NCBI GenBank assembly: GCA_964016885.1
Contig: OZ024754.1
Coordinates: 8,928,001 to 8,992,000 of the forward strand
Direction: 5' to 3'
DNA from: Eledone cirrhosa
Taxonomy: Eukaryota
DNA length: 64,000 nucleotides
The position numbers were made by a program, and so were the translations under genes. Positions 7,150 through 57,297 of this stretch are shown here, in pieces; position 1 is the first letter of the stretch, and each line of letters starts with the position of its first letter. The notes below the pieces were generated by a model. It did not search any database. It saw nothing but the letters and a program-made list of their open reading frames with translations, and was not told the origin of the DNA.

Positions 7150-7765
7150 ATTGATAAATGTGTCCGAAGACGAAAAAACCGAACTCCCACTGTCATCGCC
7201 TCCATCTCTCTCGCCCTCCCCATCTCTCTGTATTATGAGTAAATGGGGTCCCACGTGCTGGTCGCCTCACGGCCCTGGCGGACAGAATGGAGAAGGCGTT
7301 TCCTCGGAGGATGGTAAGGGAGATGCGCTGGAATCAACTTTCGCCTCCCCCAAAATTGCTGGCCATGTGTCTAAATCAGAAACCAATATTTGTCTATTTA
7401 GAAAAATTGAACGAAGAACGCAAACGAGTAAAGAAGTTGACTGAACAAATTGCGAAAATGCAGGATATTTTAGTGAAATGTCTGAGAATGGATGAAACGG
7501 AAAATCAAGAGATATGTTGTAATGACAATCGTAAGTTCCATTTCACATTTATGGTTAACTCACCCGATCCACAAGACAGGTGTGCAATGTGTCCGAACGC
7601 GGAAGAGCCGAACTCCCACCGTCATCGACCCCCATCTCTCTGTATAGTGAGAAAATGGGGTCCCACGTGCTGGCCGTCCCCACAGCGCCGGTGGACAGAA
7701 TGGAGAAGGTGTTTCTCCGGAGGATGGTAAGGGAGATGCGCTGGAAGAGCCATTCCATCTCGTAA
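7150..7765 (-). mobile_element. Two short CRE-like non-LTR 3' fragments (about 7160-7335 and 7590-7760) flanking exon C
   Basis: Minus-strand WLFQRISLTILRRNTFSIL is similar to FQRVSLAVLRGNAFSIL at 13980-14030. Confidence 0.55.
7402..7530 (+). CDS. Internal coding exon C (129 bp, phase 1-1), coiled-coil
   Basis: Acceptor tttgtctatttag|, donor |gtaagt; KLNEERKRVKKLTEQIAKMQDILVKCLRMDETENQEICCNDN joins exon B in frame. Confidence 0.7.
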
Positions 7766-8620: not shown

Positions 8621-8740
8621 GTTTACAGCCATATCACGCTGAAAACATCGGTTCTCGTCCGATCACCGAAGTTAAGCAACGTCGAGCCTAATTAGTACTT
8701 AGATGGCTGACCGCTTGGGAAACCTAGGAGCTGTAAGCAT
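8621..8740 (+). rRNA. 5S rRNA-like sequence (divergent gene, pseudogene or 5S-SINE head)
   Basis: 120 nt; terminal stem gtttacagc/gctgtaagc; ctcgtccgatcaccgaagttaagca (box A region) and tagtacttagatggctgaccgcttgggaa (box C region). Confidence 0.85.
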
Positions 8741-12150: not shown

Positions 12151-12199
<49 letters not shown>

Positions 12200-12831
12200 T
12201 ACTTTGGGAGGGTCATGTTGCCAATAAGAAACACACGCACCAGTTGCTTTCACTTCAATTTATTATAATAAATTTATAAATTTAGGAATTTATAAATTTC
12301 TGGTTGGTTGGTTGGTTCCACAACCAGATGGTTGTTTATATATTGTCAAAGTTCTTTCGTCACACATTATTGGCAACATGACCCTCCCAAAGTATAACAA
12401 TATCGGTTTCAACACACGATTTCAGATAAAGAATCTTGCTAAACAAATTCAGAAACGAAATATATATATATATATATATATATAAAGTAATAATTGTTTC
12501 TACGTTAGGCACAAGGCCAGCAATTACCCAGTGCATTACTGGTACTTTATTTTATCGACCCCGTAAGGATGAAAGGCAAAGTTAACCTCGGCGGGATTTG
12601 AACTCAGAATGGCAAGGGCCATAACTCTATGCGTCAAAGCATGGCGTCCGACCCTCTACCGATACTGCCAATCCACCGCCCTTATATATAAAGTAATAAT
12701 AATAGATGTGAAGACTAAAGTCCAAAGAGGGCTCGATAAGGATAAATATATATCAAATATGTAAGAACCATAGAAGATCCCGTTAAGGGTGAAAGCAGCG
12801 ATTCTTTGCTTAAAATTAATCTGCTATTTTA

Positions 12832-12863
<32 letters not shown>

Positions 12864-13014
12864 TTCCGTACAACCACACTCAGACCGAGCTGAAGATCAG
12901 CAAGGTGAAACATTTGTTCCCGGTATGGTGAACAAACTGTTGTGATACTACTTCTATATATATATATATAAATTATAAAAAATAAACCAAAGAAGCCTTC
13001 AATACATCAAAAGT

Positions 13015-13068
13015 CTTTATTAGCCAACAATGTTTTGTCCTATTAAGGACTCATCAGGACAAGTAAAG
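13015..13068 (-). ncRNA. Degenerate type I hammerhead motif (GAAA to AAAA)
   Basis: ctttacttgtc CTGATGA gtcct-taat-aggac AAAA cattg TT ggctaataaag. Confidence 0.6.
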
Positions 13069-13152
13069 CTACAAGAAGCACTATCGTGTACATGCATATA
13101 TATATATATACAATATATTAACAAATGGAAACTATATTTATAAAACCATATT

Positions 13153-13218
13153 TATTTCATTATACATATTTCAAGGACCACCAAAGCAAACTATGGTGCG
13201 CTTTCATCAGATAAAATA
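13153..13218 (-). ncRNA. Minimal type I hammerhead ribozyme; near-duplicate at 15626-15691
   Basis: tattttat CTGATGA aagcgcacca..tggtggtcctt GAAA tatgta TA atgaaata. Confidence 0.7.
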
Positions 13219-13288
13219 TAATATAGGTTAGTTTTATAAATAAATATTGACATACCCTTAAAAAATGCAACCATTCTGGTTGGAATCT

Positions 13289-13339
<51 letters not shown>

Positions 13340-13741
13340 TTACACATTGGGAGGGTCATCGAAGACCTCCTTCGGTCATGAATGATCATGCGATTTGCAA
13401 CCAGAAGGTCTCCCTCCAAGGCTCATCTGGGTAAAGTTGTTTGTGGAAGACCAGCAGTCGCCCATGTATACCAGTCTCCCGTCTTCACGCCACCGATGTT
13501 GTCCAATGGAAAGGCAATGGCCGATACAGCTTGACACCAGTGACGTCACAACTCATTTCTACAGCTGAGTAAACTGGTTTTGCTCAAGGACACAACGCCT
13601 CATCCGGTCCAAGAATCGAACTTACATTTCAATTGCAAGCCCAATGCTCTAACCACTAAGCCATGTGCCATGGGAGGGTCATGCCGCCAATAAAAAAAAC
13701 ACGCACACCGGTTTTCACTTTTATTTATTATAAATTTCCAT

Positions 13742-14062
13742 TTGGTTAGTTTCTCCAGCCGCAACCTGGTGCAGTCTGCGACTAACCCAAGTTCTGGTGC
13801 ACGTCGGGCTGAGGAGGCCAAACTCTTCAAATACCGGTGGCTCTCCGACAGGTTTGCGGTTGTACCCTTGGCAGTGGAGACTTCTGGTGTCCTCGGCCCT
13901 AGGGCTACCACCCTACTCACCACCATAGGCGCTGAGCTGGCCAGCCGCAGGTGTGAGCCTCGCGAGCTGGAATGTCTTTTCCAGCGCGTCTCCCTTGCCG
14001 TCCTCCGGGGAAACGCCTTCTCCATTCTGTCCACCGGGGCTATGTGGAGGCCACCAATATGA
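13742..14062 (+). mobile_element. CRE-clade-like non-LTR retrotransposon 3' fragment (RLE C-terminus)
   Basis: AEEAKLFKY..FAVVPLAVETSGVLG..FQRVSLAVLRGNA. Confidence 0.7.
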
Positions 14063-15090
14063 TTGACTGACTTGTCATTTTATCAGTCAGATGTTGATGG
14101 ATTGGAAAGTCACCTTTACTTTTCATATGGGTTGGTTAGTTTAATAACCGGATGATTGTTTATTTGTTTATTGTCAAAGCTCTTTCGTCACACATTCCGT
14201 GGCCTCCGCCAAAATGGCGTGGGACAGAACAAAGAAGGGACACAAGACAATAAATTAGTCACTGATGAACAACACATGACATTCTTTTTCTATCGACACT
14301 TTTCCATTTAGTGATATAGTGATTTACATGATCGAAGTATTAGTCATCATATCAATCAGAAGTGATTCAATATTCGTTAATACGTTTTCTCGACTCTATT
14401 GAATGTAATATTGTATTATTGGGATTGGCAGTATCGGTAGAGCGTCGGACACCATGCTATAGAGTTACGACCCTTTACGGTCTGAGTTCAAATCCCGCCG
14501 AGGTTAACTTTGCCTTTCATCCTTACAAGGTCGATAAAATAAAGTACCAGTAATGCACTGGGTAATTGCTGGCCTTGTGCCAAAAGTAGAAACAATTATT
14601 GGATTGACAGTATCGGCAGAGCGTCGGACACCATGATATGCAACATAGATACACGTCCCTTTACGGTCCGAGTTCAAATCCCGCCGATGTTAGCTTTACC
14701 TTTCATCATTACAAGGTATTTAACTAAAGTACCAGTAACAAACTGGGTCGATATAATCGACTTTCTCGTCTCCTGGTCTTGTGTCTATAGTAGAATTCAT
14801 CATTTTATTATCATCGCCTTCTAAAGAATTATTGAATGAAGAAGTTCGGAATCTCTTAAAAGCCAGCCTCAGTATAATTGTTTCTACTTTTGGCACAAGG
14901 CCAGCAATTACCCAGTACATTACTGGTACTTTATTTTATCGACCCCGTAAGGATGAAAGGCAAAGTTGACCTCGGCTGTATAACAAAATACGCACCACTA
15001 TATATATATATATATATATAAACAAGGTTTAGCAAATAATGAAAAAGTTTCAAAATAAATTTTAAAAAATTGACTTTACCTACTATAGTT

Positions 15091-15173
15091 ACCTTTACCG
15101 ATCGGTTTCGAATCCCAAAAATAAACGGAGACCATACGGCCTTCGTTGCAAAGAAAGATTCTCGTCAGAAGGT
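15091..15173 (-). ncRNA. Type I hammerhead ribozyme, intact core
   Basis: acctt CTGACGA gaatc...gattc GAAA ccgatcgg TA aaggt; stems I, II and III all pair; palindromic loop III. Confidence 0.8.
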
Positions 15174-15348
15174 TCTTTTCATTCGAAGAATATAAAATTC
15201 TTGAATATATATATATATATAACAAAGGAATTGTGGTAAGGAACCAGATGGACCATCACGCACCAGAGTACTCAATACTTAGGGTAGTAGATTGGGAAAT
15301 AGGAAAAAGTATATATATATATATCAATGATATATCATCATGGGATGA

Positions 15349-15418
15349 TATTTGTATCTGATGAGAACGCAAATATCATCCCATGATGATATTTGTTTGA
15401 AATGCGCATAATAAAATA
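15349..15418 (+). ncRNA. Minimal type I hammerhead ribozyme
   Basis: tatttgtat CTGATGA gaac-gcaaatatcatc-ccat-gatgatatttgt-tt GAAA tgcgca TA ataaaata. Confidence 0.75.
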
Positions 15419-15445
15419 CATGGAACTCTTTTAACCATCTTTTGA

Positions 15446-15476
<31 letters not shown>

Positions 15477-15625
15477 GAGGTTATATTTAATTTGTTGAGA
15501 TACAACAAGCTAAAAATATTTTTATAACTGATAAATTATTGGAGTAAATATACAAAAATTAACAAATTATTGGAGTAAATATACAATATATTAACAAATG
15601 GAAACTATATTTATAAAACCATATT

Positions 15626-15691
15626 TATTTTATTATACATATTTCAAGGGCCACCAAAGCAAACTATGGTGCGCTTTCATCAGATAAAATA
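15626..15691 (-). ncRNA. Minimal type I hammerhead ribozyme
   Basis: tattttat CTGATGA aag..ctt GAAA tatgta TA ataaaata; perfect 8-bp stem I. Confidence 0.7.
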
Positions 15692-15878
15692 TAATATAGG
15701 TTAGTTTTATAAATAAATATTGACATACCCTTAAAAAATGCAACCATTCTGGTTGGAATCTCCTATATATATATATTGTTACACATTGGGAGGGTCATCG
15801 AAGACCTCCTTCGGTCATGAATGATCATATGTATAAAATAAATATGGTTTTATAAATATAGTTTCCATTTGTTAATAT

Positions 15879-15924
<46 letters not shown>

Positions 15925-16432
15925 CATACGTCAAGACGGGCGGTCTCAAAAGTGAAACTAATTTTTGACAGTTACGTAGTGATTACTTTCACACACAATG
16001 TCATTATTTTTTTTAAAAACATACAATTGTGTACATGCATATATATATACATCTACAAATTCATAAAAATGTGTATGTATGCATAAAGATATATATACAT
16101 ACACACATATATATATACAGACACACAAACACATATATATACACACGAACACATATATACACACAAACATATATATACGTCTAAACCCATGCTTGCGTGG
16201 AAGATAGACGTTAAACGATGATGATGACACAAACATATATATATAAAAACACACATATATATATATATATATATACATACACACACACACATATATATAT
16301 ACACACATGTCAAAAATTAGTTTCACTTTTGAGACCGCCCGTCTTGACGTATGCCATATATATATATACCCACACATATATATATTATTCAAAATATTAA
16401 CAAATGAAGATATTCACATAATCAAAATATAT

Positions 16433-16495
16433 GCTTTATTATATATATTTCGAAGGTGTTTTTTGTTTTCCAGTACGTCCTCGTCAGATAAAATA
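16433..16495 (-). ncRNA. Minimal type I hammerhead ribozyme
   Basis: tattttat CTGACGA gga...ttc GAAA tatata TA ataaagc. Confidence 0.65.
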
Positions 16496-16682
16496 TATGA
16501 TTTGATATATGACATACCGCTACGGTCTTGATATTTCAATTCCAGTATTGGCAGTGATATATTTCATCAAATCTCAACATTTATATACCACAAATAATAT
16601 AAACTTTAAGAAGAAAAGGATGTGGAGCGAATTAGAGATATAAGAGAGTGTGTAAAGAAGAGGAGATATATATATATATATA

Positions 16683-16845
16683 TGATATCCCCGAAATATA
16701 TATAATGAAATAAATATGGTTTTATAAATATAGTTTTCCATTTATTTAATATTGTAAATATACTCCAAATATTTGTCGAGTGCTTTTATATCAGTTTATA
16801 AATATTTACTAGTTGTAACCCAACAATTTTAAATATAACTTTACA
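16683..16845 (+). mobile_element. Solo 3'-terminal fragment of the PLE at 50.8-56 kb, inserted in (TA)n
   Basis: Essentially identical to the reverse complement of ~50800-50960; begins inside HHR stem II. Confidence 0.75.
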
Positions 16846-17230
16846 TATATATATATATACGTATATATATAACGTTCTCTGTTTTTTTTATTTTGATGTA
16901 TATATTATATTTATTTACCCCATTTATTTACTACACCACATTTTTCATCTGTGTGATATTTTTGTAATGTTATTTATACAACCGGGAATAAAATAATTCT
17001 TACCCTAACCCTTATTATTCACTGCGAACCTGAACTGTTTCTTTTTCCTGTCTCACCATCTTCCATTCTTTCATCAATCTCTCGTCATTAATTTCCATCA
17101 ATTCCTGTCTCCTTTTCTATATTTTATATTTTCAAGGTATTTCAACAATTTTTATAATTTTTACTTTTCTTTCGTTAATTTATTCAGTTTTATATTTTAA
17201 ATATTTCTGAGTAATTTTCCGTCTAAATAT

Positions 17231-17740: not shown

Positions 17741-18904
17741 ATAGATACATATATATATATATATATGTAAATGAGACTATATACACACCTAAAACATTAT
17801 ATACATATATATATAAATGAGACTATATACATACCCAAAAGATTATATATATATGTATATTAATGAGACTACACATAACCTAAGATATATATATATATGA
17901 AAAGACTCAGGACATCGACGGCTGAGCTCCAGTTGTTTCAACCGTTAGATCTGGATGATCTAGTTGTCGAAACGGCCGGAGCTCAGCCGTCGATGTCCTG
18001 AGTCTTTTCATATTACCCACTCTACTACCCTAAGTATTGGTCCACCTAGTATCTTACCTCACCCTCTTTGTTATATATATGTGTGTATGTATATATAAAA
18101 ACAGCGATGAACTGGACTCCGCCTGGTGGTAAACGGAGGCGGGCTTGCCCAAGGATCACCTGGTGATGAATGTTCTGGAAGGACCCGATGGCAGTCAACA
18201 TCACCTGGCACGGTCTCGAAAAAGTTGCCGCTGATCTTGACCGTTGGCGAGTACTTACTGCTCGATGCGCCGAACGGCGCGGAAGAATCTAAGACTAAGA
18301 TATATATATATATATATATATTCTATACATAATAGACAATATATGACGCATCCACATCTGATATATACACTTGTAATATAAGAGTAGGTATAGGCTATAG
18401 CCGGTAAAACCGAAAGGGTCGCAACAGATATCGCTATAGTGTTTCACCAGCCCTTCCTCAATCATTCATAGATGTGTCTGTATGTAATAATTATTTTGTA
18501 TAATGTGTATTTAATAATATGTATGAGTAGATGTGTGTGTGTGTGTAATTCAGTAGATGTGTATGTAACTCAAATAACCTTCCCCCACCCTCGCTTTGGT
18601 CTCAAATAATCGTCACAACAAAAAGTACCCAGTCAACACTCTAAAGTGGTTATATAGTTGTCAACAAAAAGCACCCAGCAACACTATAAAGTTGTCCTGT
18701 AGGAGTCACGGTAAAAAGCACCCAGCATACACCGTAAATGTGGTTTGTGTTAGGAAGGACATCCGGCTGTGGAAAATAAGCCAGAAACAGTTCTGTGTGA
18801 GTAAGACATGGTCACCTGGCCTAGCATTGCCTTAAATGGGACAACCCAAGATAGCATGGAAAATGGCTGTTAAATGCAAAACGATGTATGTGTGTATGCA
18901 TATC

Positions 18905-20975: not shown

Positions 20976-21591
20976 TCTCTATATATATGTATATATACAT
21001 ATATAGATATGTATATATTTGTATATATCATTATCAACATCTTAGACAATTGAAATAGAAACTGGTACAGGGTAGAGAGGGCTCTTAGATCCAGTAAAAC
21101 AACCCCTCTAGTGGCACAACTAATACACCCAGTCTTTGCTAGAAAGTGGTTGATGAGGGGAAGAGCATCCAACCAGAAAAGAAAAAAAACCTCCAAAATT
21201 ATCTCATACTGTTTCTTTCTTATTTCAGAATATCAGATGACATTGGGATATATTGATTTTTAATCTTGAATATATCACCTATATTTATCATCATTTCAAG
21301 ACTAAACTTTTCATACGGAACTGATATAACATTCTTTATATTAGAATTACTGTGAAAAAATGTTTCAGAACTGTATTTATTGGAAAAATTTTGTTTCCTC
21401 ACCAGCCAAAATATTTACAAGATGATTTTGAATCTTAACTAAAATTTGATCACAAAGAAGTTTGCATCATCTTCAGATCTTGACTGAGATCACAGTTGGG
21501 GGAAATATAGCAGAAGAAATATCTTCAGGAATATAATATATAAAATAATACAAGAATAACATCTGTAAACTCGGTCACGGGAAGAAGAAAC

Positions 21592-29149: not shown

Positions 29150-29830
29150 TTACAATTGTTTTTCCAGCGAAAAGCTCCAGGTGTGATCTATTCGCCAGAG
29201 AAACAATTGTAATACGTAATTGTGTTCCGATACATCACTGATTCTTCGTTTTCCATATATAAATATATATATATAAGTTTATCACAGTTCAATCGGGGGT
29301 AACCACAGTAAGTAAGGTACTCAATACAAAGCAGAGTATAAATATTTAATATAGAAAAGGCTTCTACAGGACTAGAACCGTTTCCTTCGGGAAAAATTAT
29401 CAGGAAGCCCTATATATATATATGAAAAGTGAAGGCGCGTGGCTGAGTAGTTAGTGAATTGGACTCTCAATCGTAAGGTTGTGAGTTCGATTCCCGGACC
29501 GAGCTATGCGTTATGTCCTTGGGCAAGACACTGTATTTCACGTTGCTCCTTCTACCTGGGGTTGCGACCGATAGAAAGTATTAGCAATTGGAAAGACCAG
29601 TATATGAAAAGAGTCAGGGCTCCGGCCGTTTTAACAGCTATATGCGAAACGGCCGGAGCTCAGCCGTCGATGTCCTGACTATTTTCATATTACCCACTCT
29701 ACTACCCAAAGTATTGGTAGACCTGGTATCTTACCTCACCCTCTTTGTTATATAAATATATATATCCAGCGAACCTCAACCGTTAAGACTGTCTTTATGC
29801 GGGTATGTCAATATTTATAAAACAAATTTG

Positions 29831-29896
29831 TATTTTATCTAATGAAAGCGCACCATAATTTGCCTTGGTTGCCCTTGAAATATATATAATAAAATA
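29831..29896 (+). ncRNA. Hammerhead motif with G5A core change (CTAATGA); copy at 42632-42697
   Basis: tattttat CTAATGA aag..ctt GAAA tatata TA ataaaata, inside a PLE-end remnant at ~29800-30010. Confidence 0.6.
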
Positions 29897-34295: not shown

Positions 34296-37200
34296 CATCA
34301 TCACCGTTTTACGTCCGTTCTTCCACGCTAGCATGGGTTAGACGGGTTGTCCTGTTGTGGGCAGTGTCTGGTCGGCTGACCATGCCTTGCTCATACAGGA
34401 ACTGATCTGGCTTGATTTCTACAGCTGGATGCCCTTCCTAACACCAACCTTATTTACAGTGAGTGCTGGGTGCTTTTTCGTGGCGCCTACACGTCCACTT
34501 TACAGTGTGGGCTGGGTGCTTTTTGCGGTGGGGGGGGGGGGGGGGGGGGGGGCATATTGTTTATATGCTTCAGCATGTACCCATGGGAGGTCGGGTACCC
34601 TGTATTACTGCGTGACGCCAGAAGTCACGGTCGTGTGTCATTGACTTTGAGAGGTGTAGTTGGGTAAGGTCGGCTTTTATCACCTCATCCCAAGTCATCT
34701 TGGGTCTCCCCACTCCGCGGTTTCCATCAACTTCTAGTGCTCTGCACCTTTTTATGCAGCTGTCATCCTTCATACGCATCACATGTCCATACCAGCGTAA
34801 CCGCCTCTCCTGCACGCAGCATTTGATTCCTCTTATGCTCAGTCTCTCTCTCAATTCCTTTATGCTTTGTCGTTCACGTATATTACTGTTACACATCCAT
34901 CGGAGCATGCAGGCTTCGTTTCTCTCTAATCTACGTAAGTCTTCCACCTTCAGCGCCCAGGTCTCACTACCATGCAACATCGCTGTTCGGATACACGCAT
35001 CATACAGTCTGCCTTTCATTCTGAGGGAGAAGCCTTTTGCAGCTAGCAGTGGTAGTAGTTCCCTAAACTTCTTCCATCCCGTTCTTACCCTAGTTATTGT
35101 ACTTTCTGAGCACCCACCTCCGCTGCTAATTCGGTCACCTAGGTAGCAGAAGCTGTCTACTGTTTCTACAGGGCCCTCCCAGAGATTGGTGGTACTTGTT
35201 TCCTGTGGCTGTTTGCTTGCTGTTTCAGCACAGCTGCTGCATGTGAATCCTACATTCTTAATTAAGCTTCCTGAGATCCCGCTACATCTCTTGTGTACCC
35301 ATTGTTTGCATTTGGGGCAGAGAATGGAGTTCCTACCTACACCTTTCCTACATACTGAGCAAGGCCATTTCCCTGAGGGGATCTGGGTTCTGTTTTCTCG
35401 TCTACTTATAAGGACCTTAGTCTTTGTCATGTTGACTTTGAGGCCCTTTCTCTCTAGTCCCTGCTTCCAGGTTTGGAATTTATTCTCTAGTTCTACCATA
35501 GATTCAGCTATGAGTGCGAGGTCATCAGCATACAGGAGTTCCCATGGGCATCCGGTCTTAAACTCCTCCGTTATTGCCTGCAGGACTATGATGAACAGGA
35601 GAGGGCTAAGAACAGAGCCCTGGTGGACCCCAACCTGTACGCTAAATTCCTCGCTATACTCATTGCCAATCCTAACTTTGCTGACTGCTCCCCTATACAT
35701 GGCTTGTACCGCTTTCACAAGCCATTCATCTACTCCTAGTTTTCTAAGAGCCCACCAGATTACTGCACGTGGAACTCTGTCAAAGGCTTTCTCAAGGTCG
35801 ACAAATGCCAAGTAGAGTGGCTTACTTTTAGCTAGGTACTTTTCCTGTAATTGCCTCACAAGGAAGAGGGCATCAGTGGTGCCTTTCCCTGGTACAAACC
35901 CAAATTGCATCTCGTCTATATTCACCCGGTCCCTAATCAGCTGTGCTATAACTCTTTCTGTTACTTTCATGACCTGGTCCATCAACTTTATACCTCTATA
36001 GTTTCCTCTATCTAGTGCATCGCCTTTACCTTTGTAGCAGTTGACAATGATGCTACTGCACCAATCTTTTGGTATGGCCCCCTCTAGTATTACCTGGTTA
36101 ACGATACGTGTGGTTATAGTGTGACCTACAGACCCAGATGCCTTCAGCATCTCGGCAGCTATACCCGATGGACCGGTTGCCTTCCCTATCTTCATATCTC
36201 TGATTGCCTTACTTACTACGCTGCCGCTGACTTGTACTGCTGGTCCCTCTATAAGGTCTACGTGGGGTAGGGTCTCTTCTTCCCATGCATTCTCCTCATT
36301 TAGTAATCTATCATAATGACTCTTCCATGCATCTTTCTTCTCAGCACTTGTGAGGACAAGCTCACCTTTATCATTCCGGATACACTTCTCTCCAATGACA
36401 TCACAACTATCTCTGACACACTGCCTCGCAATCTTGAATACCTCCTGTTTCTGGTCCTCACGTTGTAAAACATGCTTGAATTTTCTATCCTCTGCTTCCC
36501 TCCTAGCTAAGTATACTTGTCGCCTAGCTTCCCTCTTGGTCTCTATGTAATGTACCCTGCTCCCCCCGTTCTTCCATTCTTTCCATGCCTGTCTCTTGGC
36601 CTTGACTGCTTCATCTACCTTATTGTTCCACCACCAAGTCACTCTCCTCCTGCTTGAGGTCTTACTCCAGCCACAAACCTCATCCGTCGCCTCTAGTAAG
36701 TTATTTTTTAGGAACTCCCAGTTCTCTTCTACGTTAAATGTCTCTATCTGTTCTTCTTTACTGTCGTAGGCGTTGAGTAAAATATCTTTAAATCTGTTAC
36801 TGGTTGAAGGGACTTTCAGCTTCCAGATCTTTCTTCTCCAGGTTGGCCTCTGTTTCAGGGCTCATCTAGTTCTGACCGTGAGGTCGCTGACAACTAAGCT
36901 ATGTTGGGATGTACATTCCTCACTAGGGAAGGCTTTTGTGTTTACGACCGTCCATCTGTCACGTCCTCTGATGAGGATAAAATCTAACTGACTAGAGTGC
37001 TCCCCTGATCTATAGGTGATCAGGTGGTTGTCGGGTTTTTTAAAGTTTGTGTTACATATCGACATGTCATTGGCGTCGCAGAATTCTAGAAGTCTGAATC
37101 CTTCCTCATTCCTTGTGCCAACTCCATGGCCTCCATGTACTCTATTGAAGCCGTCGCAGTGTTTACCTACGTGTCCGTTAAAATCTCCTGCAATGATTAG

Positions 37201-37858
37201 GAAGTCCTTGTCGTCTGTTAGAGCAGTAGTGTGTATTAGGGACTCGTAAAACCTATCCTTAAGTTCGTCTGGCAGCCCCGATTGGGGTGCGTAAGCTGAT
37301 ATTATTGTGGTAATTGTCTTATTCAGGACTAGTCTGAGTTTAATGATTCTTGCATTTACCCTGTACACTGAGATTACTTTATCTACCCACTTGTCAGCTA
37401 ATAGTATACCTACACCACCCATCCCATCGTCATTTCCCACCCAGAAAAATTTGTAGCACTGGCTTTTTCCTACAAGGACTCTAGCAGACCCTCCTCTCCA
37501 TCTAGTCTCTTGCACACAGCATACATCAACTTCCTTTCGTTCTACGATTTCTCCTGCTCTTCCTTTCATTGAGCCTACATTGATGGTACCAACTCGGAGT
37601 TTTGGGCATTTGTCGACACTCGTAGGGGAGGGTCTCTGGGTTGGCGCTTCACGTGGGTGCTTGGTAGCTCGCAGATTCATATTTCATCTATTGATTCAGA
37701 GTTGTTCGTGTATTCCCAGCTCATCCATCCATAACGGTGGGAAAATTGAGGGCTAGAAGAACAGTGGTGGTGGGGTAATGGCAGGGTGTGTTGGGATGCG
37801 CCAGAGGAGGAGAGAGTTAGTTAGGCAGGTAGTAGCAGCAGCAGTGGAAATGGCATGC
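34296..37858 (-). mobile_element. Near-intact, apparently full-length RTE-clade LINE (APE, RT, PHD-like finger), unit 2 only
   Basis: Single frame 37680-34570 broken only by TGA at 36864-36862; QET, GDFNGHVG, LDFIL, AFVDLEKAFD, GVHQGSVLSP, YADD; (ATG)n tail; short TSD gctat; empty sites near 24320 and 47125. Confidence 0.92.
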
Positions 37859-40800: not shown

Positions 40801-43800
40801 GCAAATAGCCAGTGCATTACTGGTACTTTATTTTATCGACCCCGTAAGGATGAAAGGCAAAGTTAACCTTGGTGGGATTTGAACTCATAATGGCAAGGGC
40901 CGTAACTCTTTGCATCAAAGCATGGCGTCCGAGCCTCTACCGATACTGCCAATCCACCGCCCTTGTATATATATAAATAGATAATCCCGTTCATTTCTCT
41001 TATAATATATATACATATATTTAACGTTCTCTTTTTTTTTTTTTTTTTTATTTCAAGTAACTTACAAGGGATATTCTATGATTGACTAGAATCACTTCCA
41101 GTGTGTGTATTTATTTACAACATTGATATTCTACACCACATTCGTCATCTATGTGACACTTGTAATGTTATTTTTACAACCAGGAATAAAATTGTTCTTG
41201 AGATATTCACTGCGAACCTGTACTTTCTCTATTTCTTGTTCGGACTTGGTATATATATATAATATTTATTTACTACACCACATTTTTCATCTGTGTGATA
41301 TTTTTGTAATGTTATTTATACAACCGGGAATAAAATAATTCTTACCCTAACCCTTATTATTCACTGCGAACCTGAACTGTTTCTATTTCCTGTCTCACCA
41401 TCTTCCATTCTTTCATCAATCTCTCGTCATTAATTTCCATCAATTCCTGTCTCCTTTTCTATATTTTATATTTTCAAGGTATTTCAACAATTTTTATAAT
41501 TCTTACGTTTCTTTCGTTAATTTATTCAGTTTTATATTTAAAATATTTCTGAGTAACATTTCCTGTATTTTCCGTCTAAATATTGTTTACATATATATAT
41601 AAATGAGGTATAGAGATTGTTTTAGCGAGAAGCTAATAGTATTCTATAACATATATGCGACTATAACGTCAAGATGGGAGAAGTAGTTAACGTAAGATTT
41701 AGGAAAAATAAAGATATATAGATATATATAATTAGAAAGTGAACAACACAAAATATAACTACTCCATTACCAAAGCTTTCTGGATCCCAGATAATAATGA
41801 TATACGTCTTTTCCTTCGGAATTACCTAATACATATATATATATATATATTTGTAGTAATGTTGCTTTGATGCGTCCATAGGTGGTATGCCGTTTGAGCA
41901 CTATGCCCCTAGATGGAAAACGAAGAATCAGTGAATCAATTTATTACGTATTACAATTGTTTTTCCAGCGAAAAGCTCCAGGTGTGATCTATTCGCCAGA
42001 GAAACAATTGTAATACGTAATTGTGTTCCGATACATCACTGATTCTTCGTTTTCCATATATAAATATATATATATAAGTTTATCACAGTTCAATCGGGGG
42101 TAACCACAGTAAGTAAGGTACTCAATACAAAGCAGAGTATAAATATTTAATATAGAAAAGGCTTCTACAGGACTAGAACCGTTTCCTTCGGGAAAAATTA
42201 TCAGGAAGCCCTATATATATATATGAAAAGTGAAGGCGCGTGGCTGAGTAGTTAGTGAATTGGACTCTCAATCGTAAGGTTGTGAGTTCGATTCCCGGAC
42301 CGAGCTATGCGTTATGTCCTTGGGCAAGACACTGTATTTCACGTTGCTCCTTCTACCTGGGGTTGCGACCGATAGAAAGTATTAGCAATTGGAAAGACCA
42401 GTATATGAAAAGAGTCAGGGCTCCGGCCGTTTTAACAGCTATATGCGAAACGGCCGGAGCTCAGCCGTCGATGTCCTGACTATTTTCATATTACCCACTC
42501 TACTACCCAAAGTATTGGTAGACCTGGTATCTTACCTCACCCTCTTTGTTATATAAATATATATATCCAGCGAACCTCAACCGTTAAGACTGTCTTTATG
42601 CGGGTATGTCAATATTTATAAAACAAATTTGTATTTTATCTAATGAAAGCGCACCATAATTTGCCTTGGTTGCCCTTGAAATATATATAATAAAATAATT
42701 ATGGTATAATTAATATATTGAATATTTACTCCACTAACTTGTTGAGTGCTTTATATCAGTTATAAAAATGTTTAAGCTTGTTGAATCCCAACAAATTAAA
42801 TATAACCTCTGCATATATATATATATATATGTGTGTGTGTGTATTTATAAATATATATATAAGTTAGACAATATATATAATAGACAATATATTACACCTC
42901 CACATCTGATATATACGAATAGGCTATGTAGCCGGTAAAACCAATAGGGTCGCAACACACATCGCTATAGTGTTTCACCAGCCCTTCCTCAATCATTCAT
43001 AGATGTGTGTGTATGTAATAATTATTTTGTATAATGTGTCTATAAATATATATCAGTAGATGTGTATGTATCACAAATATTCATCCCCCATCCTTGCTTT
43101 GGTCTCAATTAATCTTCCCCCACCCTCGCTTATTTATTTTTCAGATTTTTCTCACCGCCTCCCCGTACTTAATACACCCATCCTCTGTTTATTAAATTTT
43201 TATTTTAAGTGGTAGCATTTCGGCGACAATTTTCTTTAGACATTAAAAAACATTATACATGACAAAAAAAAAGTACATTATTAGAAATCCCATATGTTAT
43301 AAAATAAATAAGATGGGTTGGGGCTCTCACTATGTAAACTAAATGACAGATTCTGGTTTTCTATCTCTGGTGAAATTTTGAAAAATTATCGATTTTCCAC
43401 CCACCCCTTGCTTATTTCTGTTTCAATGTATTTAATATGACAAAAAACACGTGGTCATGTAGGTGTCACACCAAAATGCACACAGTTCACACTCTAAAGT
43501 GGTTATGTAGGTGTCACAACAAAAAGCACCCATGCTTCACTGTAAAGTTGTCCTGTAGGAGTCACGGTAAAAAGCACCCAGCATACACCGTAAATGTGGT
43601 TTGTGTTAGGAAGGACATCCGGCCATGGAAAAGAAGCCAGAAACAGTTCTGTGTGAGTAAGACATGGTCACCTGGCCTAGCATTGCCTTAAATGGGACAA
43701 CCCGTCTAATCCAGGCTAACATGGAAAATGGCCATTAAATGATAACTATATGTTTTTGTGTGTGTGTAAAGACCTGCAAATAAACTTCCCACTAATTGTG

Positions 43801-50493: not shown

Positions 50494-50538
<45 letters not shown>

Positions 50539-50624
50539 AACAAGTAAGACCCCGACGGTTGAGCTCAAGCCGTTTCGACGGCTAATTCTGGACTTTGAGC
50601 TCAGCCGTCGGGGTCTTACTTGTT

Positions 50625-50667
<43 letters not shown>

Positions 50668-50930
50668 AATATTTAGACGGAAAATACAAAATATAACTAT
50701 TCCATTACCAAAGGTTTCTGGATCCCAGATAATAATGATATACGTCTTTTCCTTCGGAATTACCTAATACACATATATATATATATATATATATATATGT
50801 ATAGTTATATTTAAAATTGTTGGGTTACAACTAGTAAATATTTATAAACTGATATAAAAGCACTCGACAAATATTTGGAGTATATTTACAATATTAAATA
50901 AATGGAAAACTATATTTATAAAACCATATT

Positions 50931-50996
50931 TATTTCATTATATATATTTCGGGGATATCATATTAACAATATGCTATGCCTTCATCAGACAAAATA
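50931..50996 (-). ncRNA. Hammerhead ribozyme in the left inverted arm of the PLE
   Basis: Reverse complement of 55945-56010. Confidence 0.7.
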
Positions 50997-52457: not shown

Positions 52458-52858
52458 TGGAATATATATATATATAGAGAGAGAGAGAGGAAATAGAGAT
52501 AGATACATATATATATATAGAAAATTAGGTAGTGGGAGGTCATTTTGAGTAAGTGTATCAATGATACATTTATTTATTTATTTATTTATTTATTTAGCTC
52601 AAGTATTAATGTAAGGGAGAAATATAGAGAGATATAGAGAGAGACAAAAAAATTTAAAAATAGCCAGACATATTCGAGGCGTAGAAAACCCTATGTTTTA
52701 ATGTATTAGTATTTATAAAACTTACACTATATTGTAAATATCAGTATTCCTGAATGAAACAAGTATCCATAATGTGTGAAAATTCATTATCTTATGTTTA
52801 GTTTTAAAAAATTCATATGTTTATGTGACAGCTACAAACATCAATGTGAATCCAACTC

Positions 52859-54437
52859 ATTCTTGACAGGGTGATACAGCAAATTAAGAACTTGGATTGT
52901 GTATCTAACCTGAGCTTGTGGAAGGGAACTGGAGAGGTTGTTGAGTGGCTTAGGCAAATTAAATATAACAATAATAATAGGTTTATTCAACTTGATATAG
53001 CTAACTATTATTCTTCTATTACCCCTAGTCTACTAAATAAGGCACTAAATTACGCATTCAAACATACGGACCTAACTAGCAAAGAAATGCATATTATATT
53101 ATCGGCTAGGAAAACTTTGATAGAATTTAATGACAAATTATGGACCAGAGCAGATAGAGATAGCAATTTTGACATAACTATGGGATCTTCCGACTCAGCT
53201 CAGGTAACTGACCTTGTGGGCTTATTTTTAATCAATTCGCTACATAGGAAAATACCTGGTACTACCGGAGGTTTATATAGGGATGACATGCTTTTACTTA
53301 TTAATAATAATAACCCTGAACTAAATAGAAAATGTAAACAAATTACAAAATTTTTTAATTACTTTAACCTTAAAATAGAAATTGAGAACAACCATAGAAT
53401 AGTCAATTTCCTAGATATAACATTAAATCTCAACACATGTCTCCACTATCCTTTTCACAAGTTGAATGAAAACTTAAACTATGTCAACTTTAACTCTAAC
53501 CACCCCAGATCTGTCAAAAACACTATAGTAAACTCAGTCCAAAAACGTATCTCTAGGATCTCGTCGAATAGAAAGATTTTTGACGAAAAGGCCCAGTACT
53601 ATAATGATGCACTAGCTAGGGCAGGGTATGCTGATAAGATTGTGTACATAGATAATGATAGACAAACTAAACAAAGTAACAACTTTTTTAATTACGGCAA
53701 CAACATTAACAACTATAATAGAAAGCATTACAATAATTCCAAAGGACAAAAAAGAAATAGAACTAGGAACATAATTTGGTTTGCCCCCCCCTTTCTCACT
53801 AAACATTAAAACCCACATTGCTAAATTATTTTTCAAAGCTCTTGATAATCGCTTCCCTAGAACACATAGGTATCACTCAATCTTCAATAGGCATACAATT
53901 AAATTAACCTACTCATCCACCAAAAATTTAGCACAAAATATTAATAGAATAAATAATAGGAACTTAAAACCTACTGATAATAGCATAAACAATATACAAG
54001 TTAACAAATGTAACTGTAGAGATAGATCTAAATGTCCGTTAAATAACAACTGCTTAGTTAAAAATATAGTATACAATTGTAATGTTAATACTGACTCTAA
54101 TTCTTTTAACTATGTCGGTTCCACATCGACGGAATTTAAACTTCGCTATAATAACCACAAGAATTCTTTCACAGATCCAAATAAAAAATCTTCAACGGCA
54201 CTATCAGGCGTACTCTGGCAACTTAAGCTAGATAACGTTAGATATTCGACGGCTTGGAATATAGTCTCAAGAGGGATTCCTTTTAATTCATCCTCTGAGA
54301 CATGTGACCTCTGCGCAGAGGAGATATTCTTTATACTAAAATCTAAAAATTCCCTTAACCTACGGACAAATTTATTCAGTTGTTGCAAACATAGATTAAA
54401 CTCAACGTTTAAATATAAATTTAAATTTAAAATGTAG
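52859..54437 (+). CDS. PLE polyprotein remnant: RT plus C-terminal GIY-YIG endonuclease, one frameshift at the C8 run near 53784-53791
   Basis: FIQLDIANYYSSI, MGSSDSAQ, GGLYRDD, NFLDI, SNHP; WFAPPF/SLNIKT; CNCRDRSKCPLNNNC; NIVY..NYVGST..FKLRYNNH; CDLC..E..LN..CKH. Confidence 0.88.
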
Positions 54438-55944
54438 TATATTTAATTTGATTTATATTTATATGAGAACTAGCCGATAAATTTTTGATTCCTAAATCTT
54501 TGATTCCCTCTTTTTACTCTTTTTTTTTTTTATTGTTTATTTTATTTTTTTTATTTTTATCTAAACATTCCTCATGAAAAATTAAGCTACCCTAAAAGCC
54601 GATGCTCCAAATTTTTTGAATTAACCTTACACTAGATAAACTTCTATATTAAATATAGGAACATATGTAGACATAATTGGACATCATAATCTTTTTGAGA
54701 TGTTCTTTGCTAGATGTGATTTGATAGATAATTTTTGGCTTTGTCTTGTAATGAACTTGGCAATATATTGTCAATTAACTTTGAAGGGTTGTTCTTTGTG
54801 GTTTATCTTTATTTTTATTTTTATTTTTATTCTTTTAGTATTGTAGTATTCTATATTTTTTTATTTTTATTTTTATTTTATTTTATTTTTAATATTTTTA
54901 ATATCTTTAATATGTAAATTTTTAATACGTAATATTTTTTAATACGTAGTATTTTTAATATGCAATATTTTTATTATGTAATATTCTTTCGTAATATTTT
55001 TTCAGTTTTCTATTCTATATTTTTACTTATTATTATTATTATGTAATATTCTTTCGTAATATTTTTTCAGTTTTCTATTCTATATTTTTACTTATTATTA
55101 TTATTATTATTGTTATCTTTTTATTTTTAGTTTTGTTTATAATATAATATATATTTTTGATTAGTATATTGAAATCTGCTCTCTATTTCTGCTTGATTGA
55201 TAATCTTGTAGAGTAATCGCAAGAATAATAATACGCTCAAATTTTTATACCACATTGAGAATGTTTTCCGGTAACTTAGAGTTTGCAGAGTGAATCAGTT
55301 GGATTCACATTGATGTTTGTAGCTGTCACATAAACATATGAATTTTTTAAAACTAAACATAAGATAATGAATTTTCACACATTATGGATACTTGTTTCAT
55401 TCAGGAATACTGATATTTACAATATAGTGTAAGTTTTATAAATACTAATACATTAAAACATAGGGTTTTCTACGCCTCGAATATGTCTGGCTATTTTTAA
55501 ATTTTTTTTTTCTCTCTCTATATCTCTCTATATATCTCCCTTACATTAATACTTGAGCTAAATAAATAAATAAATAAATAAATAAATGTATCATTGATAC
55601 ACTTACTCAAAATGACCTCCCACTACCTAATTTTCTATATATATATATGTATCTATCTCTATTTCCTCTCTCTCTATATATATATATATATCTTTCTGTT
55701 TCTTTACATGAAGCTCTTCGCTTTATCTATTTTTCCATCTCTCTATTTTGTTCCATGCATTTCTTCTTTTTCTTTTTCTTCTTTTTCTTCCTTTTCTTCG
55801 TTTTGTCTTTCTTTCTTTTTTCTCTCTTTTTTTTTTTTTCTCTCTTTCTCTCTGTATTTTCACTGCTAGCGTAAACCTCTTCAAATGAAGTCGATGTTTA
55901 TTACGGTATGTCGAATATATTTATCTATAAAACTGTTTATATTG

Positions 55945-56010
55945 TATTTTGTCTGATGAAGGCATAGCATATTGTTAATATGATATCCCCGAAATATATA
56001 TAATGAAATA
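55945..56010 (+). ncRNA. Minimal type I hammerhead ribozyme near the PLE 3' end, sense to the ORF
   Basis: tattttgt CTGATGA aggcatag-catatt-gtt-aatatg-atatcccc GAAA tatata TA atgaaata. Confidence 0.72.
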
Positions 56011-57297
56011 AATATGGTTTTATAAATATAGTTTTCCATTTATTTAATATTGTATATATATATATATATATTTGTAATAAGGTTGCTTTGATGCGTCCAT
56101 AGGCGGTATGCCGTTTGAGCACTCTATGCCCCTCGATGGAAAACGAAGAATCAGTGAAACAATTTATTACGTATTACAATTGTTTTTCCAGCGAAAAGCT
56201 CCAGGTGTGATCTATTCGCCAGAGAAACAATTGTAATACGTAATTGTGTTCCGATACATCACTGATTCTTCGTTGTCCTGTAGGAGTCACGGTAAAAAGC
56301 ACCCAGCATACACCGTAAATGTGGTTTGTGTTAGGAAGGACATCCGGCCATGAAAAAGAAGCCAGAAACAGTTCTGTGTGAGTAAGACATGGTCACCTGG
56401 CCTAGCATTGCCTTAAATGGGACAACCCGTCTAATCCAGGCTAACATGGAAAATGGCTATTAAATGATAACTATATGTTTTTGTGTGTGTGTAAAGCCCT
56501 GCAAATATACTTCCCACTAATTGTGTCTACAGGAATAACACAAGTCATGTTAGTGGGGTGCCTAGAGTAGCCATGTGTGAGTATCCCTTGACTGTTATCA
56601 AGCAATTGCACAGCATTTTCCCCTTCCAGGTAGAAAGAACTGTTACTCAAGGAACTGTCAAGTTACACATCTCAGGTCTCAGACAATTACTATGTTGGAA
56701 AGTCCTATAAGAATGAATTTTGGGGTAAAGACTATCGGGAAGACCTCCCAAGAGATAAAAGGGTAAAATATATATAGAGCATGCTGGAATACCACTGCTC
56801 ACATTGGAGAGTATTGCTCTGGACAGGAAAGATATCTAGTTTACCAATATAGAAATATAAAATTTCCACTGTTAAATCTATCTCTGCTTCTTAAGTATTC
56901 TCTATTATCTCATACCGTTTCTTTCTTATTTCAGAATATCAGATGACATTGGGATAAATTAATTTTTAATCTTGAATACATCACCTATATTTATCATCAT
57001 TTCAAGACTAAACTTTTCATACGGAACTGATATAACATTGTTTATATTAGAATTACTGTGAAAAATTTCTTCAGAACTGTGTTTATCGGAAAAATTTCGT
57101 TTCCTCACCAGCCTAAATATTTACAAGATGATTTTGAATCTTAACTAAAATTTGATCACAAAGAAGTTTGCATCATCTTCAGATCTTGACTGAGATCACA
57201 GTTGGGGGAAATATAGCAGAAGAAATATCTTCAGGAATATAATATATAAAATAATACAAGAATAACATCTGTAAATTCAGTCAAGGGAAGAAGAAAC

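Follow-up and report, generated by a model that had tools for sequence, protein, structure and literature searches.

The window analysed in this work, a 64,000-nt stretch of Eledone cirrhosa DNA, contains seven hammerhead (HHR) motifs, numbered #1 to #7, within 3.6 kb, a Penelope-like element (PLE) with an HHR of its own, and an array of ZNF units (Table 1). Homology among the ZNF units begins near 16860 and the coding exon near 21230; a possible first-exon donor is located near 17137. Judging from these positions, the cluster is likely situated immediately upstream of unit 1. The cluster region also contains SINEs, a nested RLE-type fragment, the second TA-inserted family (family B) and a 48-bp-TIR element, which makes it a general insertion sink. 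We presume the SINE label for 13360-13670 and the CRE/RLE label for about 13755-14130. A Pfam search with six proteins, including the nested non-LTR fragment and the window's PLE, returned no families.

Table 1. Features of the window (positions are those of the window)
Feature	Position	Strand	Remarks
Element 1, ~90 nt between TA tracts	12864..12954	+	Decayed type I HHR #1 at 12884-12924
Element 2, ~125 nt	12972..13095	-	HHR #2 at 13015-13068, 5-bp stem II, G12→A core
Family A end with intact-core HHR #3	13110..13290	-	HHR 13153-13218
Family B, TA-inserted repeat, PLE-like end	13337..14196	-	Abundant in reads (loose ends at 15798)
Nested tRNA-SINE (presumed) in family B repeat	13360-13670		12-bp TSD
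Nested RLE-type non-LTR fragment (presumed) in family B repeat	about 13755-14130		
Element 4, ~185 nt	15021..15204	-	Intact HHR #4 at 15091-15173
Family A-related end with HHR #5	15326..15448	+	HHR 15349-15418
Family A end with intact-core HHR #6	15474..15828	-	HHR 15626-15691, 160-nt tail
Inverted family A tail	15833..15890	+	Attached to 5′ end of #6 insertion
Family A-related end with intact-core HHR #7	16386..16665	-	HHR 16433-16495
3′ half of family A HHR + 140-nt tail	16683..16845	+	Absent from the first-pass annotation
Family A HHR, G5→A core change	29831..29896	+	Paralogous copy 42632-42697 in duplicated ZNF units
Inverted upstream copy of PLE-end HHR	50931-50996	-	
ORF assigned to a Hydra-clade PLE, RT + C-terminal GIY-YIG	52850..54437	+	5′-truncated, frameshifted; parent type of family A
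HHR at 3′ end of window's PLE	55945..56010	+	50-nt tail to (TA)n

Detection and state of the seven motifs

A descriptor scan found all seven motifs (7/7) with the coordinates and strands that the first-pass annotation had given, and each of them lies, as it had said, between (TA)n tracts. With a permissive descriptor, exactly these seven were recovered from 12860-16520, and the shuffled control proposed in that annotation gave a mean of 0.02 and a maximum of 1 in 500 dinucleotide shuffles. In the whole window the same descriptor found 11 motifs vs. a mean of 0.37 (30 shuffles), the four outside the cluster starting at 29831, 42632, 50931 and 55945. Stricter descriptors gave 5-6 motifs vs. means of 0-0.008 in 2000 shuffles; for one of them 5 motifs were observed against a mean of 0.0005, and 0/2000 shuffles reached 5. 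The results clearly showed that the seven motifs are far above the chance expectation. The location of 7/11 motifs inside 3.6 kb has P=4e-5 for uniform placement, P=0.002 when placement is restricted to the window's 96 TA tracts (17 of them in the cluster), and P=0.0015-0.004 after duplicates are collapsed, all three values applying to a window that was itself chosen because of the cluster. Since a P of about 0.002 survives TA weighting, TA density alone is not the full cause of the clustering. At the Rfam gathering threshold none of the seven motifs was matched (the sole match in the window is a 5S rRNA at 8621-8739); #2 gives a weak match to HH9 (E 0.014), and no other motif of the seven gets one.

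The type I core (CUGANGA / GAAA / UH) is intact in 6/7 motifs; the exception is #2, which reads AAAA for GAAA, a change that had not been flagged. In the hammerhead, G12 serves as the general base; as the AAAA hits this very position, #2 is predicted to be dead. The stems I and II flanking the core are fine in #2, #3, #4 and #6, weak in #7 and broken in #1, while those of #5 are sequestered in context. Loop III had been described as palindromic or nearly so; full self-complementarity is found in five motifs, whereas in #1 and #2 it is imperfect. The "six families" of the first-pass annotation can be kept at the level of stem II, i.e., as subfamilies; otherwise there are four unrelated groups, because #3/#6, #5 and #7 have a common stem I and common flanks.

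The hammerhead-fold probabilities given below are monomer secondary-structure estimates at 37 °C, which leave out tertiary contacts and dimers. The value for the HHR of the parent PLE itself is just 9e-4, so low values alone are no proof of inactivity; those of #1 and #5 in context are far below it. The motif #1 has an intact core, a GUU site and a Hydra-style U·U at 10.1/11.1; its stem II, already noted as weak, has 1-2 bp, a mismatch in stem I adjoins the core, and the predicted fold probability in context is about 1e-6. Neither #1 nor #2 has a second copy elsewhere in the window. The motifs #3 and #6, which are 99% identical over 201 nt, are intact, with an 8-bp AU-rich stem I, a fold probability of 0.04-0.05 and a loop III self-duplex of only -2.2 kcal/mol. 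In #3 the AUA site, with its predicted cleavage after 13161, is followed by a 50-nt tail to (TA)n; its element is about 81% identical to the 3′ end of the window's PLE. The insertion carrying #6 has the same upstream flank as #3, namely a TA tract, the family B tail and about 30 nt of the SINE 3′ end, combined with a longer tail, which a simple independent insertion leaves unexplained. The SINE piece in this flank is rare in reads (X21 depth of about 7 at 15805-15833). The inverted tail attached to #6 begins at the cleavage site or within a few nt of it.

The motif #4 has a GUA site, a 7-bp stem II with a 38-nt insert, and a 10-nt perfect palindrome whose dimer is predicted at -16.6 kcal/mol; by prediction, the monomer could form a stem III as well (2 bp with a tetraloop). 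By these predictions, #4 is the best candidate for activity among the seven. The motif #5 is 5′-truncated near 15355, where its stem II is preceded by a second, inverted copy of itself (15332-15354), which forms with 15370-15392 a perfect 23-bp inverted repeat of -41 kcal/mol. Its core is intact, yet the predicted fold probability in context is 7e-17. In reads, the upstream sequence of the #5 family departs at 15355 (loose ends of runs X1, X4 and X5), indicating that the 23-bp hairpin is private to this copy. The motif #7 has a weak stem II, a 54-nt tail and a predicted fold probability of 2.5e-5. The half motif at 16683..16845 is 98% identical to 50773-50963. Taken together, the predictions suggest that three of the seven copies (#1, #2, #5) are dead.

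The Penelope-like element, its relatives and the copies in reads

The RT + GIY-YIG element lies at 52850-56060. Its ORF has a CxCX5C linker, CxxC and CxH near the C-terminus and no CCHH cysteines inside GIY-YIG; the region of the N-terminal RWK and DKT, present in 63/72 and 71/72 long homologs, respectively, is missing from the window's copy. The best-scoring named homolog comes from Argonauta hians, which together with the C2H2 array would point to an octopod. By the motifs of its ORF, which match the Hydra-clade marks set out in PMC8557442, the element is assigned to the Hydra clade, the reference sequences having been compared by eye. Naiad and Nematis were rejected as the clade on domain order and motifs; in the case of Naiad, the EN here is C-terminal, not N-terminal, an HHR is present, and DKA is found in just 2/72 homologs. 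The stop codon is separated from the HHR by about 1.5 kb, a spacer exceeding what the under-3-kb Hydra elements described would hold.

The motifs #3, #5, #6 and #7 have a stem I, a loop III register and flanks in common with the HHR at 55945-56010. The earlier reading of the motifs as PLE ends in TA repeats with a dimer-type loop III is supported, and for these four it can be narrowed to the Hydra clade. As no ORF is linked to #1, #2 and #4, it is their motif style and anatomy that suggest a PLE origin for them. In the six family A copies of the window, 93% of 100 stem cells pair vs. 35-59% in slid controls, so the stem covariation that the first-pass annotation had put up for checking is observed; 7/17 pairs change on both sides, as counted in n=6 related sequences with stem II loosely aligned. 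For #4, one pair-keeping change is seen in reads.

The hammerheads of relatives were characterised at 79 metagenome loci that encode related RTs, taken from the best 80 of 331. A type I HHR is present in 61/79 of these loci, giving 53 distinct HHRs, of which 44 have GUA, none AUA, and 15 a U·U; in 48/53 the segment between GAAA and UH is 7-8 nt long. A near-palindrome of this length together with GUA, the form of #4, prevails among these loci. The stem II span is 10-25 nt in relatives, 29-33 nt in family A and 52 nt in #4. Family A combines U15.2-A16.2, an AUA site, a TA repeat as loop III and a stem II mismatch at the fourth position. According to this survey, #4 and #1 look like ordinary Hydra-type motifs, and family A is a variant. 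The family A DNA pattern had no matches in metagenome contigs, and the patterns for #2 and #4 had 0 and 0 matches in viral contigs.

Four public DNA runs were compared with 15022-15878, a segment comprising #4, #5 and #6 (3/7 motifs). All three are covered in 4/4 runs, with 27,154 reads in X21, and are multi-copy families. In X1, the summed depth is 40-67k for the #4 core, 54-281k for #5 and about 1.0M for the 5′ core of #6; the single contigs listed have depths of 7-17, and the summed depth is no copy number. Read roughly, the depth possibly corresponds to a copy number in the thousands for #4 and of 10^4-10^5 for family A. This rough reading agrees with the remaining 60 kb of the window, where family A has inserted independently about three times. 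According to the loose ends (9478 + 2049 reads), the stem II found in the window's PLE is that of the commonest subfamily. Going 5′-ward from the tail, the X1 depth drops from 2.77M through 1.39M, about 1.0M and 0.68M to 0.23M; 6220 X21 reads enter (TA)n at 15593, many copies ending about 50 nt past the cleavage site.

Variation in reads is seen in the stems and loops and, apart from one change in #5, preserves the structure; no substitution falls on the core bases of #4, #5 and #6 among the 40 rows listed. In #4, a G·U of stem II is changed to A-U in 257/561 X21 reads, and the palindrome has a central one-base insertion in 145/692 reads. Loop III of #6 is perfected to a TA repeat in 7492/16,397 reads. 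In #5, two extra T in 553/846 reads bring back the stem II mismatch at the fourth position. A palindrome-breaking change in #5 occurs in 1180/1988 reads of one direction and 1/405 of the other, likely representing one RAD stack.

Origin of the cluster

Most probably, the cluster consists of type I hammerheads on short 5′-truncated 3′ ends of PLEs of several families, with the Hydra clade as the source of four motifs, and these ends accumulated by repeated (TA)n insertion. The polarity is the same for every motif: the cleavage site is followed by 36-75 or 123-160 nt and then by (TA)n. In six motifs the downstream TA tract is 36-75 nt from the cleavage site, in #6 160 nt, and two end classes of 50-54 and 123-160 nt can be distinguished. 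This polarity and the 5′-ward drop in depth fit target-primed reverse transcription from internal starts with early 5′ truncation, a process demonstrated in vitro with a Poseidon element (PMC11167929). In the mechanism we propose, the GIY-YIG endonuclease of the element would nick (TA)n, and synthesis by the RT would begin at an internal position 36-75 or 123-160 nt beyond the hammerhead. With synthesis ending after about 90-350 nt, nearly every stub would keep its hammerhead. At the 5′ joint, some stubs would acquire an inverted piece. Each insertion would divide a TA tract in two and, leaving TA on both sides, would offer more targets, thereby feeding nested insertion and a local cluster. 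The nicking and priming steps, the TA feedback and any catalysis are inferred. For the element itself, the hammerhead likely acts on its tandem RNA, either as a dimer or with the help of protein, and the hammerheads in the cluster would be passengers.

An origin of the motifs by chance, from the base composition of AT-rich repeats, is so improbable that it can practically be dismissed: the poor pairing of #1 and the lack of any motif at the Rfam threshold would fit it, but shuffle means of 0.0005-0.02 stand against 5-7 observed motifs, the stems covary, and there is homology to a PLE end; for #3-#7, chance is already refuted. Another idea is that the cluster was co-opted as an RNA-cutting zone by which read-through transcripts of either strand around the ZNF array are terminated or degraded. 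The clustering above the TA-weighted expectation, the end of the cluster about 0.4 kb before the shared ZNF-unit sequence and the four intact minus-strand cores speak for it. The ZNF ORFs, however, run on the plus strand, which bears just #1, #5 and one half motif; both plus-strand motifs are predicted not to fold, and the earlier suggestion of cutting on either strand is thus unsupported. Moreover, three of the seven copies are damaged, as expected without selection, and in the paralogous ZNF units no such cluster precedes the shared block. The same units were rejected as an empty site of the whole cluster, since their homology begins only at about 16860. Published animal PLE hammerheads are described as inactive or weak as monomers (PMC4209133) or protein-dependent (PMC11167929); for a Poseidon element in vitro, the HHR needed protein and was dispensable for insertion, with no RNA ends at the site (PMC11167929). 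Co-option is therefore very improbable in our estimation, and the finding provides no evidence of ribozyme-based gene control. Cutting of host (UA)n in trans by the TA-repeat loop III found no support, since with a strict substrate pattern 5/5 sites in the window belong to copies of the element itself; a looser substrate pattern has 45 sites.

It is less far-fetched, yet still unlikely, that the short elements are non-autonomous retrozyme-like units, i.e., self-cleaved circular RNAs copied by the PLE RT, and not just aborted ends. Tail and core depths far above the upstream depth would be consistent with this, #6 resembles a re-mobilised copy of the #3 locus with flanking DNA, and animal retrozymes are argued to derive from PLE pLTRs (bioRxiv 10.64898/2026.07.22.740005). 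On the other side, no head-to-tail tandem units each with an HHR, which define a retrozyme, are found within the window, where single stubs have different 5′ ends, and among the 24 loose-end rows listed, the 5′ joints do not accumulate at the cleavage site. A bolder reading, to which we give a comparably small chance, assumes about 10^5 octopod hammerheads of a variant Hydra-PLE whose dimerisation palindrome is the target TA repeat, with stubs of different subfamilies completing each other, such that a retrozyme is born from a microsatellite pile-up. Minus-strand read-through RNA would then form mixed double hammerheads of #7, #6 and #3, which share stem I, thereby releasing 0.8-kb and 2.5-kb pieces that the PLE RT would re-insert with host flank, as #6 may record. 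Loop III of #3, #6 and #7 is predicted to be cross-compatible at 8/8 positions; the cross-pairing is weak, about -3 kcal/mol at 37 °C and about -7 at 15 °C.

Relation to known elements and significance

Accumulation of truncated PLE ends, the reading we prefer, is in line with what is described for Hydra-clade PLEs (Craig et al. 2021, PMC8557442): a C-terminal GIY-YIG EN with the CxCX5C linker and no CCHH, a type I HHR near the 3′ end with a near-palindromic stem/loop III, and (TA)n insertion with inverted 5′-truncated copies. A Hydra PLE with a hammerhead and (TA)n preference, Hydra-1_Obim, is known from Octopus bimaculoides (PMC8557442); the HHR listed there matches 0/7 motifs when compared by eye, and so represents a different family. 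Unlike the relatives' HHRs, family A has U15.2-A16.2 with AUA (0/53), a TA-repeat loop III and a 29-33-nt stem II span.

The minimal hammerheads of PLEs (Cervera and De la Peña 2014, PMC4209133) resemble the motifs here as thousands of dispersed single motifs on truncated PLEs of sequence-diverse families, with a palindromic 15.2-16.2 region and opposite-strand pairs 100-700 bp apart. Unlike them, the motifs here are not minimal, their loop III segments having 5-8 nt, and #4 could form a monomer stem III. Poseidon PAc of Anolis (Frangieh et al. 2024, PMC11167929) likewise has an internal RT start downstream of the HHR and AT-rich targets, and its two RT start sites are paralleled by the two end classes found here. 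In contrast, the Poseidon PAc ORF starts in stem II and the tail has 30-40 bp (PMC11167929), whereas here the tail contains no ORF start and about 75-110 nt separate the two ends. The non-LTR retrozymes of animals (PMC7229834; bioRxiv 10.64898/2026.07.22.740005) are also short, non-coding, high-copy repeats with a type I HHR, but, as these sources present them, they are tandem repeats expressed as circRNA, whereas here we see single stubs of unrelated families between TA tracts.

We found no paper on the hammerhead load of cephalopods beyond Craig et al., and the main text of two cephalopod repeat papers (PMC13282606, PMC8967140) contains 0 occurrences of "ribozyme"; Repbase, Dfam, supplements and subscription journals may already contain these families. 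What is new, in this scope, are PLE end families of a clade described in 2021 and a mildly unusual hammerhead. The clade thus gains several PLE end families from octopods, together with a variant hammerhead that has an AUA site, a TA-repeat loop III and a long stem II, and the cluster clearly illustrates how insertions nest in TA repeats. For the axolotl, up to 120,000 retrozyme copies are reported (PMC7229834); if our rough estimate of copies is right, the hammerhead load of octopods would be on a par with it. The motif #4, which is predicted to be able to fold as a monomer, may be an easy candidate for an assay, and thousands of natural variants, if the copy estimate holds, would help test what PLE hammerheads do.

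Further family A pieces and the ZNF array

Additional pieces of family A, the PLE-end family to which hammerheads #3 and #6 of the cluster belong, were observed within the window. At 54-236, a minus-strand family A tail (the sequence from the hammerhead cleavage site to the (TA)n) adjoins the 5′ half of a plus-strand hammerhead of the same family, and this is another insertion of the family, inverted and broken. Two family A hammerheads on the plus strand, 29831-29896 and 42632-42697, likely lie on the sense strand within intron 1 of ZNF units 2 and 3. Both carry the G5→A substitution, which reflects a single event with duplication afterwards. In ZNF unit 4, the family A hammerhead at 55945, also on the sense strand, is intact. 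The C2H2 zinc-finger units are arranged in tandem over 21544-60721 (at least four, with a period of about 12.8 kb), each bearing TE insertions of its own, and a near-full RTE-like element (34570-37683) is found inside this region.

Other elements in the window

A second, abundant TA-inserted family is represented by copies at 12196-12403 and 13337-14196 (−), one of which bears an inverted tail of 37 nt. A further hammerhead may be represented in both copies by its 3′ half (12340-12366 and 14168-14194); no 5′ hammerhead core was found in cis to these half motifs. The TA tracts also harbor MITE-like short elements, and a short TA-flanked repeat lacking the hammerhead core lies at 15221-15309 and has similar copies.

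Short repeats other than hammerheads
Feature	Positions	Property
MITE-like short elements	15923-15970 and 16308-16355; 50537-50628; 17900-18010	perfect or near-perfect terminal inverted repeats
Repeats similar to 15221-15309	18005-18039, 29682-29768, 42483-42569	

A fragment at 13755-14130 (+), flanked on both sides by a short direct repeat within a GGTT-rich tract, codes for the C-terminal end of a non-LTR element of RLE type, which we take to be CRE-like; further fragments are at 7256-7333 and 7668-7762. A single 5S rRNA match (99.8 bits) was detected at 8621-8739 (+).

A similar pile-up in another organism

A metagenome locus encoding an RT relative (L016, 136-360) contains two unlike hammerheads separated by 175 nt, each followed by a TA tract. 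This is a small-scale version, in another organism, of the hammerhead pile-up in the window.
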